Positions 59,223 through 60,396 of a stretch of DNA of 60,401 bases are shown here, in pieces. The translations under genes were made by a program, and so were the position numbers. The stretch is from an uncultured Thermoplasmatales archaeon (GTDB taxonomy: Archaea > Thermoplasmatota > Thermoplasmata > Thermoplasmatales > GCA-001856825): positions 1 through 60,401 of the forward strand of contig CAYMEF010000003.1 of assembly GCA_964389625.1 (NCBI GenBank), written 5' to 3'. Below the pieces are notes generated by a model. The model made no database searches, had not been told where the DNA came from, and was given only the letters and a program-made list of their open reading frames with translations. Numbering within the stretch: the first letter of the stretch is position 1; the number at the start of each line of letters is the position of its first letter.

Positions 59223-59987
59223 TTAGAGAGGTTTGGAGATCTCTGTCTCCAACGGGTCAATTTCGATGTCTATCGTGATCGACTGCTCGCTCAGGACCTC
59301 TTCCAGTGTCTCTTCGATTATTGAGTCAAATGAGTCCCTGTATTTCCCGTATATCGTATCGTAGAGCTTGAGCTGGCTCTCCATGGTCTGGTCCATGTCC
59401 TCCTTGATCCTCTCGTTGATATCCCTTATAGACTCGAATTCGTTGTTATCGTAGACCTCTATGTGATCCGTTTCTTTTCTCAGCTGGGCAAGAGCCCTGT
59501 CTGCGATCTCCTTCCTGTGATCCTCGAACTCGAATGGTCTGACCGCAAATACTTTGTAGGGTGTATTCTCCTTCTTCAACAGTTTCACCATCTCAATGGT
59601 TCCTCCTGACCCAGTTCCTCCGCCAAGTGCAGTAACCAGAAGAACTAGGTCGGCCCTCCTGAGCACTTGAAAGTCGATCAGAGCGGAGTTTTCCTTGAAT
59701 GCCTTCTTTGCGACTTCAACGTAACCGCCAGAGTCCCTGTTGTCAAGAATGTACTCTGTACCAACGTTGATGGACTTGACGTCACCTCTCTTCGCATTGG
59801 AGAGAGCATCTGTGTTCAGACAGTACAGATTGACCTCCCTTCTCTTTTTGCTTAGCTCGGAAACTATATTGCAGCCCCCTCCACCTATACCTACGCATAC
59901 TATGGAGGGTTCTAAGAACTTTTTGTCCCTCGTAAGGCCGTTAGTCAACTGGTATAACAGGCTAGACCTGTTACTCTCATCTATCAC
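59223..59987 (-). CDS. Truncated FtsZ2-like tubulin-family GTPase (N-terminal domain only)
   Basis: VGIGGGGCN, LNTD, LGGGTGSGG tubulin signature, RPFEFE.HR, DNN; no NxDxxD T7 loop and no C-terminal domain; acidic tail. GTG 59987 follows an SD-like GGGGTGA. Confidence 0.85.
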   Translation of the reverse strand: MIDESNRSSLLYQLTNGLTRDKKFLEPSIVCVGIGGGGCNIVSELSKKRREVNLYCLNTDALSNAKRGDVKSINVGTEYILDNRDSGGYVEVAKKAFKENSALIDFQVLRRADLVLLVTALGGGTGSGGTIEMVKLLKKENTPYKVFAVRPFEFEDHRKEIADRALAQLRKETDHIEVYDNNEFESIRDINERIKEDMDQTMESQLKLYDTIYGKYRDSFDSIIEETLEEVLSEQSITIDIEIDPLETEISKPL

Positions 59988-60396
59988 TTTTTTCACCCCT
60001 CTGTTTTTCCTCTCTCCTCTCCTCGAAAGAGAGATCATCAAAATTCAAAAGGTTCCTATCGTCTATGTATCCCCTGACGAGCTTGTTGAGCCACATGGGC
60101 AGGAAGTGCTCTTCGTTGACCTTCCTGACTATAAACTCAAGCGCATCGTATCTATCTCGGAAGAGTCCCTTCGTTACCATTTGGTCGAGTGTGTTCAGGG
60201 TCGCTTTTGAAAGCTTCATTTCTGTGTCTTCAAACGATGTCTTGGATTGCGGGTGCTGTATGTATGAGTAGACAGCGGCCCTGATAAGTTCAGATTTCGA
60301 CTTGAATCTGAGCGAAGTGCTCAGGTAGTCGTTTATCTCATCGTCTTCCTGCGGTGTTAGACGAAGTGCAATTCTCCTGGTACTATTAGAATCCAC
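59977..60396 (-). CDS. Tandem ribbon-helix-helix protein (CdrS-like)
   Basis: RHH1 RRIALRLT...FKSKSELIRAAV; RHH2 EMKLSKATLNTLDQMVTKGLFRDRYDAL; overlaps the start of the FtsZ-like gene. The frame may extend beyond the window end. Confidence 0.8.
   Translation of the reverse strand: MDSNSTRRIALRLTPQEDDEINDYLSTSLRFKSKSELIRAAVYSYIQHPQSKTSFEDTEMKLSKATLNTLDQMVTKGLFRDRYDALEFIVRKVNEEHFLPMWLNKLVRGYIDDRNLLNFDDLSFEERREEKQRGEKSDR

Follow-up and report, generated by a model that had tools for sequence, protein, structure and literature searches.

Two overlapping genes at the end of the window (the whole stretch of DNA analyzed here, 60,401 nucleotides, which is the entire contig C3 of its genome) encode a tandem-RHH protein and an FtsZ-type protein that stops after the GTP-binding half and is called half-FtsZ below. 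The pair is real, conserved, and functional, and it is under strong purifying selection. It is best explained as an old duplicate of the tandem-cdrS and ftsZ2 operon of Thermoplasmata, in which the FtsZ would have been reduced to the N-domain, helix H7, and a short tail. The source genome comprises 1.51 Mb in 112 contigs and is 65.7% complete. The archaeon is acid-loving, and near-identical DNA is carried by mine-drainage and hot-spring metagenomes. The closest database proteins are named Thermoplasmata archaeon or Thermoplasmatota archaeon by their sources.

Gene layout and chromosomal context

The tandem-RHH gene (59977..60396, minus strand) encodes 139 aa between a GTG start at 60396 and a TGA stop at 59977-59979, as given by the list of open reading frames and by the start of the orthologue in genome G012. 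The contig ends 5 bp further; despite this, we judged the gene to be complete, since its start coincides with that of the G012 orthologue. The half-FtsZ gene (59223..59987, minus strand), delimited by the list of open reading frames, profile matches, and relatives, encodes 254 aa from a GTG at 59987 and shares 11 nt with the RHH gene. Its frame is open up to a TTG at 60041 (59223-60041, minus strand; 272 aa). The GTG at 59987 is the likely start; it is preferred because the Shine-Dalgarno-like stretch GAGGGGTGA precedes it and because the relatives G003 and G013 have 253-aa frames in which a TGA closes the upstream stretch. GAGGGGTGA was read from the sequence at 59993..60001 (minus strand), within the end of the RHH gene, and may act as a ribosome-binding site. 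The length of ~254 aa given in the original prediction fits this start and the frames of the two relatives. The overlapping upstream gene with two RHH domains that it described is also found, with two RHH-like units in its product.

Synteny places the pair on the chromosome, adjoining aIF2-beta and the pyrBI-ftsZ1 region. In 12 genus loci (L010-L021), TGACA words are clustered ~200-250 bp upstream of the RHH start, which is beyond the end of the window. Their density there is 1-8 per 342 bp, compared with 0.6 per 330 bp in the window, and three of the words occupy fixed places in one orientation. A TTTATATA box is conserved ~45 bp before the GTG of the RHH gene, and a TTGTACGCC..TTAGAAAT block is conserved farther upstream.

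Structure of half-FtsZ

The FtsZ-type GTP-binding domain of half-FtsZ (59427..59906, minus strand) comprises loops T1-T6 and extends to the start of H7. It is matched by the Pfam Tubulin profile (PF00091) at residues 46-205 with an E value of 8.5e-20 and 72.3 bits, above the cut-off of 33. The motifs GGGGCN, NTD, GGGTGSG, PFEFE, and DNN, all of which had been listed in the original prediction, are present at residues 53, 76, 140, 169, and 198 of the 272-aa frame. The positions of GGGGxN, NTD, and GGGTGxG are invariant across 25 family members, and the T4 loop is degenerate in some members, e.g., GGSSAY in G022. The TIGR00065 ftsZ equivalog model gave 75.4 bits, below its cut-off of 295.2, and was aligned at positions 15-178 of 353 only.

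In the AlphaFold2 model (pLDDT 77.9, 25 relatives), the GTPase fold is followed by a single helix at residues 205-251 and a disordered end. H7 is predicted to be lengthened to one helix of ~47 residues (59289..59429, minus strand), with no T7 loop after it. The pLDDT of this helix is 86-93 up to approximately residue 230 and 70-74 from there to residue 250. The acidic tail (59226..59288, minus strand) has alternating hydrophobic residues (ITIDIEIDPLETEI), is disordered in the model, and varies in sequence between families. Residues 205-272 contain 19 D/E versus 7 K/R, which, together with the long helix, agrees with the acidic helical tail that had been proposed. The model contains no C-terminal domain, and no N.D..D motif (the T7 synergy loop NxDxxD) occurs anywhere in half-FtsZ; the segment is absent when the protein is aligned with full-length paralogues. 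A profile search of contig C3 with FtsZ_C (PF12327) gave no match; therefore, no remnant of the C-domain lies within the 344-bp downstream spacer. The earlier description of a protein without a T7 loop or C-terminal domain is thus confirmed, and neither is present in cryptic form in the model. The best PDB folds found by a Foldseek search with the model were FtsZ chains, with ~190 columns aligned.

The family profile matched FtsZ proteins of the PDB at 1e-28 to 1e-33, CetZ (4b46, 4b45) at 1e-15 to 1e-16, and RepX/TubZ at 1e-9 to 1e-14. Compared with FtsZ proper, the protein has the GTP-binding loops and lacks the whole-protein score, the C-terminal domain, and the T7 loop. Membership in CetZ was rejected because the CetZ matches are far behind those of FtsZ. 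A TubZ/TubR-type assignment was rejected because of the TubZ/RepX values, the missing C-terminal domain, and the chromosomal synteny. FtsZl1, as described in the available part of PMC2875224, resembles half-FtsZ in its plan: an FtsZ-like N-domain continues into an extended helical stretch, and the canonical C-terminal domain of FtsZ is lacking. However, according to the same part of that paper, FtsZl1 lacks the T6-H7 elements and has an alpha-helical C-terminal domain of its own. FtsZl1 membership was also rejected because FtsZl1 is far more divergent, whereas half-FtsZ keeps T6-H7 and scores as FtsZ.

The database names of half-FtsZ proteins are automatic only. Oliva, Cordell and Lowe are said to have found in 2004 that the isolated N-domain of Thermotoga maritima FtsZ folds and binds nucleotide, and that its GTPase activity needs the other half. 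That domain is an engineered fragment, whereas half-FtsZ is a natural gene. Conserved, shortened FtsZ paralogues have been proposed to tune division in Hyphomicrobiales, where overexpression of one of them inhibits division (abstract of bioRxiv 10.1101/2025.09.29.679267). However, these paralogues are bacterial and arose in an independent event, no RHH partner is named in the abstract, and they are likened to half-FtsZ by their shortening alone. The covered parts of the literature searched, including PMC9856176, PMC9871819, PMC8178401, PMC11188069, and PMC7439475, yielded no account of a Thermoplasmata FtsZ that consists of the N-domain only; such proteins may appear under other labels in supplementary tables.

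The tandem-RHH partner

The first RHH unit (residues ~8-53; 60235..60375, minus strand) was located by the CdrS model NF058555 and the predicted helices. The model matches residues 8-53 with an E value of 1.4e-5 and 24.9 bits, below its cut-off of 100. The second unit (residues ~61-97; 60106..60216, minus strand), located by a weak CdrS match (E 0.34) and the predicted helices, precedes a fifth helix and a terminal segment that is charged and disordered. It had been the second unit that was thought to resemble CdrS; this has to be corrected, since the first unit matches better. In the AlphaFold2 model, strand-helix-helix units are observed at residues 8-47 and 58-95. The predicted helices are 15-27 and 34-47 in the first unit, 64-75 and 82-95 in the second unit, and 98-113 as the fifth helix. 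The confidence in the arrangement of the two units is low (pTM 0.30); therefore, we do not claim an intramolecular pseudo-dimer.

Pfam RHH_1 matches nine of the 11 members of the partner family (best E 4.4e-5). An hhalign comparison of the partner family (A2) with the tandem-CdrS family (A3) gave a probability of 98% and an E value of 2.2e-13 over 89 columns, colinear over both units. With 139 aa, two units, and 24.9 bits, the protein falls outside the CdrS equivalog NF058555, which is a single RHH protein of ~60 aa. It has the features of a CdrS-like RHH regulator, namely the RHH fold and a gene placed immediately before an FtsZ-type gene. According to the available part of PMC7439475, CdrS shares a transcript with ftsZ2 and regulates it. 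Because CdrS controls the transcription of ftsZ2 in that account, the RHH protein is predicted to be a transcription factor resembling CdrS, and its most likely task would be to adjust the dose of the pair. A complex prediction of half-FtsZ with its RHH partner scored 0.00 without controls and speaks neither for nor against binding.

Conservation and selection

Half-FtsZ was found in 17 of the 18 genomes of the same genus, the single miss being a 61%-complete assembly, and in all six genomes of the same family; the open frames always measure 258-285 aa. We also ran a broader profile (A4) against 201 genomes of the phylum. In at least 25 of the 33 genomes of the same class, its best match, among the matches listed, was a frame of 234-316 aa; six more genomes of the class matched outside the listed matches, and two gave no match to A4. 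For genomes of other classes, the best matches among the best 150 were located in frames of at least 338 aa, and two short secondary matches were found outside the class (G041 and G096). A profile search against 1.84 billion representatives returned three close-family clusters (E 1e-45 or lower), followed by ordinary FtsZ proteins.

The RHH gene is located directly upstream of half-FtsZ at every one of the 31 loci inspected in the class Thermoplasmata (the window, G012, and 11 genus, 10 order, and eight class loci). Outside these loci, L075 has a candidate frame of 139 aa in the RHH position.

The dN/dS values were calculated by the Nei-Gojobori method for 12 genus orthologues, with only the pairs having a dS between 0.05 and 2. 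In half-FtsZ, dN/dS was 0.042 for the GTPase core, 0.075 for the long helix, and 0.20 for the tail. In the RHH gene, it was 0.056 for the first unit, 0.021 for the second unit, and 0.057 for the whole gene. A recent pseudogene is excluded because dN/dS is 0.04-0.08 over the domain and helix. The reading as a pseudogene or frameshift is also ruled out by the frames of the relatives and by the lack of an FtsZ_C remnant downstream. Close relatives do not have a full-length FtsZ2 at this place; their copies are short as well, and the truncated architecture recurs across the class. The G012 orthologue (L021:8923-9678; 251 aa) ends in …TRGGPYYRYRG, unlike the other genus members, and its tail may reflect a frameshift or a misassembly.

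FtsZ-type paralogues in the same genomes

The source genome (G000) does contain full ftsZ genes elsewhere: three full-length genes with FtsZ_C are located on contigs C15, C22, and C51. In relatives, a second tandem-RHH gene, with two CdrS-like matches per protein, is found elsewhere and lies directly upstream of an FtsZ-type gene. The FtsZ linked to this tandem CdrS is full-length (343-353 aa) in G028, G032, G038, G027, and G148. In the genus members G012 (L039:612-1815) and G018 (L040:1333-2536), the linked tubulin-type protein has ~290-300 aa and ruined GTP motifs, with GVGHLG in place of GGGGxN and AQVEGRFQEA in place of GGGTGTG, and few of the T7 residues remain. The protein seems to be a pseudo-GTPase FtsZ2. 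The source genome has a degenerate FtsZ2-type gene at the start of contig C17 (L096 = G000:C17:3-761; 77% identity). Both RHH-linked operons were found in 10 genomes (G012, G018, G028, G032, G038, G027, G148, G130, G223, and G095). A tandem CdrS was not seen near the tubulin-type genes inspected in G190.

Family f8 has a reduced set of these genes. FtsZ_C gave no match in its genomes G130, G095, and G223, which are single-contig assemblies, each 99% complete. The only tubulin-type proteins of this family are half-FtsZ and an FtsZ2 derivative of 279-311 aa without the T7 segment. The derivative follows a 99-aa tandem CdrS that adjoins ribosomal protein genes (loci L078, L081, L082, L091, L092, and L095). 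SepF was found in G130, the sole f8 genome searched for it.

Origin of the gene pair

Only the N-terminal domain was used for phylogenetic trees, which were built under the LG+C20 PMSF model with an outgroup of five FtsZ proteins, three of which are bacterial by source name. A 55-row tree was derived from a 43-row tree by adding 19 rows from less diverged lineages and removing seven near-duplicates. The mini 183-190-aa proteins, the 260-265-aa proteins of L076/L077, the degenerate FtsZ2-type proteins of the genus, L093, and L094 were excluded from all trees. The clade labels FtsZ1 and FtsZ2 were taken from synteny inside Thermoplasmatota, without named reference proteins. The gene beside secE-nusG-L11 is the one that we take to be FtsZ1, and an FtsZ-type gene beside secE-nusG-L11 is seen in the genomes analyzed here. 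FtsZ2 denotes the gene that follows cdrS, in line with PMC7439475.

In the 43-row tree, half-FtsZ was monophyletic (98/97), and neither the FtsZ2 side (AU p 0.49) nor the FtsZ1 side (AU p 0.32) was rejected. In the 55-row tree, FtsZ2-like rows and half-FtsZ formed a clade (92/89), the FtsZ1-like clade was supported at 93/98, the outgroup split at 97/94, and the monophyly of half-FtsZ at just 74/90. Constraining half-FtsZ with the FtsZ1-like rows cost 10.4 log-likelihood units, with a marginal AU p of 0.031. A descent of half-FtsZ from the FtsZ2 side is therefore moderately supported, by a 55-row tree that places it there and against a 43-row tree that leaves its position open.

On gene content, the pair in the window is a paralogue of cdrS-ftsZ2 and not a remodelled orthologue, because the same genomes carry a separate tandem-CdrS and FtsZ2-type operon. 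The colinear alignment of the two RHH families fits a duplication of the whole operon; the cdrS-ftsZ2 unit would have been duplicated as a whole and then diverged. The link to FtsZ2 in the original prediction thus has moderate support, but the pair is not a remodelled cdrS-ftsZ2 operon, since the tandem-CdrS and FtsZ2-type operon coexists separately. The pair resembles the cdrS-ftsZ2 of Euryarchaeota, as described in the available part of PMC7439475, in that an RHH gene homologous to CdrS lies directly upstream of an FtsZ2-side gene. It differs in having two RHH units per chain, yet the genuine CdrS of Thermoplasmata is also doubled. It differs further in that its FtsZ lacks the T7 loop and C-terminal domain. 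What is new here is that both operons coexist, that the pair is a paralogue of cdrS-ftsZ2, and that the doubled regulator is common to the genuine cdrS-ftsZ2 of these archaea.

Proposed function

In FtsZ filaments, the GTP pocket of the lower subunit is completed by the T7 loop of the upper subunit, and filaments need both halves. We tentatively propose that half-FtsZ, loaded with GTP, terminates the chains of FtsZ-type filaments and that a CdrS-like regulator controls its dose. Half-FtsZ would bind GTP, and at the growing end of a filament, its nucleotide (top) face would dock on an FtsZ-type subunit, against the T7 (bottom) face of the latter. The filament would end there, because half-FtsZ offers no bottom face of its own. 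The T7 loop of the neighbor could hydrolyze the GTP of half-FtsZ and release it. A GTP-timed chain terminator of this kind would set filament length and turnover, and the RHH transcription factor would set the dose of the pair.

According to the available part of PMC8936486, incoming FtsZ monomers attach through the top surface, which carries GTP, at the end of the filament where the T7 loop is exposed; mutants of the bottom interface act as toxic cappers. By analogy with these mutants and with MciZ, a subunit that has a top face but lacks a bottom one should block further growth at the end exposing T7. However, the examples in that source are laboratory mutants or small peptide inhibitors, whereas half-FtsZ is a natural, conserved paralogue that lacks a whole domain, and its capping activity is predicted by this likeness.

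Chain termination is supported by the intact GTP motifs, the missing T7 loop and C-domain, the conservation, the selection, the presence of three full-length FtsZ partners, and the FtsZ2-side origin. The main objection comes from the f8 genomes. Because these genomes have no FtsZ_C and their other tubulin-type protein lacks T7, there would be no canonical filament to cap. Genomes of this sort, which keep the pair without a T7-bearing FtsZ, make a pure capping of canonical FtsZ less likely. The degenerate T4 loop of some members, the marginal AU value of 0.031, and the 43-row tree are further points against chain termination, and it assigns no part to the long helix or the tail, which we also count against it.

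The f8 objection favors a different role, in which half-FtsZ would be obligately partnered with the FtsZ2-type paralogue and perhaps also with SepF. The proteins would form a GTP-binding hetero-oligomer or scaffold that is independent of T7-activated hydrolysis, with half-FtsZ as a structural subunit. The coexistence of both RHH-linked operons in the 10 genomes inspected is consistent with this role, as is the additional, degenerate FtsZ2-type gene of the source genome. Family f8 has just the two tubulin-type proteins and retains SepF, and in the genus, it is the FtsZ2-type protein that lost the GTP motifs and half-FtsZ that kept them. The acidic-hydrophobic pattern of the family's tails is loosely similar to the C-terminal peptides of full-length paralogues; however, this similarity was judged by eye and is not common to other families. 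G190, in which no tandem CdrS was seen near the tubulin-type genes inspected, also argues against an obligate partnership. On balance, we consider such a partnership to be unlikely.

A DNA-linked module, in which the tandem-RHH protein would bind chromosomal sites and recruit the GTPase as in TubR-TubZ partition or SlmA-type nucleoid occlusion, seems quite improbable to us. A partner of DNA-binding type is adjacent at all 31 loci, and the long C-terminal helix recalls partner-binding tails. The TGACA cluster upstream of the RHH gene in the 12 genus loci would suit such a module, but the divergent aIF2-beta gene is closer to the cluster and may be the one to which it belongs. Moreover, the profile is much nearer to FtsZ (1e-33) than to TubZ/RepX (1e-9 to 1e-14), the partner is homologous to CdrS, which is a transcription factor, and a protein without the T7 loop would not form a canonical GTP-hydrolyzing filament.

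The pair could also be read as similar to a toxin-antitoxin module, with half-FtsZ as a division poison restrained by an RHH antitoxin. The RHH gene comes first and overlaps the second gene, VapB_antitoxin matches weakly in four of the 11 partners (best E 0.0039), and a subunit without a bottom face is expected to poison FtsZ assembly. However, the pair is present in a single copy with fixed synteny, has spread vertically throughout the class, and is under strong purifying selection, all of which is unlike mobile toxin-antitoxin modules. The partner is also a paralogue of CdrS, and we regard this explanation as very improbable. A decaying remnant or an assembly artefact, as the position at a contig end in a 65.7%-complete assembly might suggest, can practically be dismissed, since the same length and architecture are found in dozens of genomes, single-contig ones included, with a dN/dS of 0.04-0.08 and no FtsZ_C remnant downstream.

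To our knowledge, hardly any FtsZ regulators have been identified in archaea. A class-wide, selected half-subunit would be a natural tool for studying the control of filament ends in archaea. In a bolder picture, which we think has little chance of being correct as a whole, the division machinery of Thermoplasmata would include a natural bottom-less FtsZ subunit working with the FtsZ2-type paralogue. The lineages that lost every T7-bearing FtsZ but retain SepF would then use a SepF-anchored assembly of GTP-binding FtsZ derivatives without the canonical mutual activation of hydrolysis. If true, this would be an FtsZ system running without a polymerization-coupled GTPase. Genomes with SepF but no canonical FtsZ make the anchored partner of SepF directly testable.

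Additional tubulin-type proteins

Several other tubulin-type proteins were observed in these genomes. A mini tubulin/FtsZ-like protein of 183-190 aa with a degenerate G-box is encoded directly downstream of an Orc1/Cdc6 gene in the source genome (L005:1384-1935, contig C7), and a frame of this size is kept in G012 and G018 (L071, L072). A tubulin-type family of 260-265 aa (MEMLAVIGCGGAGSRF…) adjoins an enolase-superfamily gene in G038 and G028 (L076, L077). The secE-nusG-linked FtsZ1 of the genus (L002, L061, and L062; 334-337 aa) ends right after the globular domain (…GAKNKYV), without a linker or a C-terminal peptide; an end of the LDxxIDxV type is retained by both other full-length paralogues of the genus. 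A full-length FtsZ2-side paralogue of 348-378 aa, designated ZX (L063, L064, and L065), has no cdrS neighbor. ZX is the top full-length FtsZ on the close-family profile, with 80-83 bits in two of its three members and 65 bits in the third, compared with 30-47 bits for the FtsZ1-like genes.
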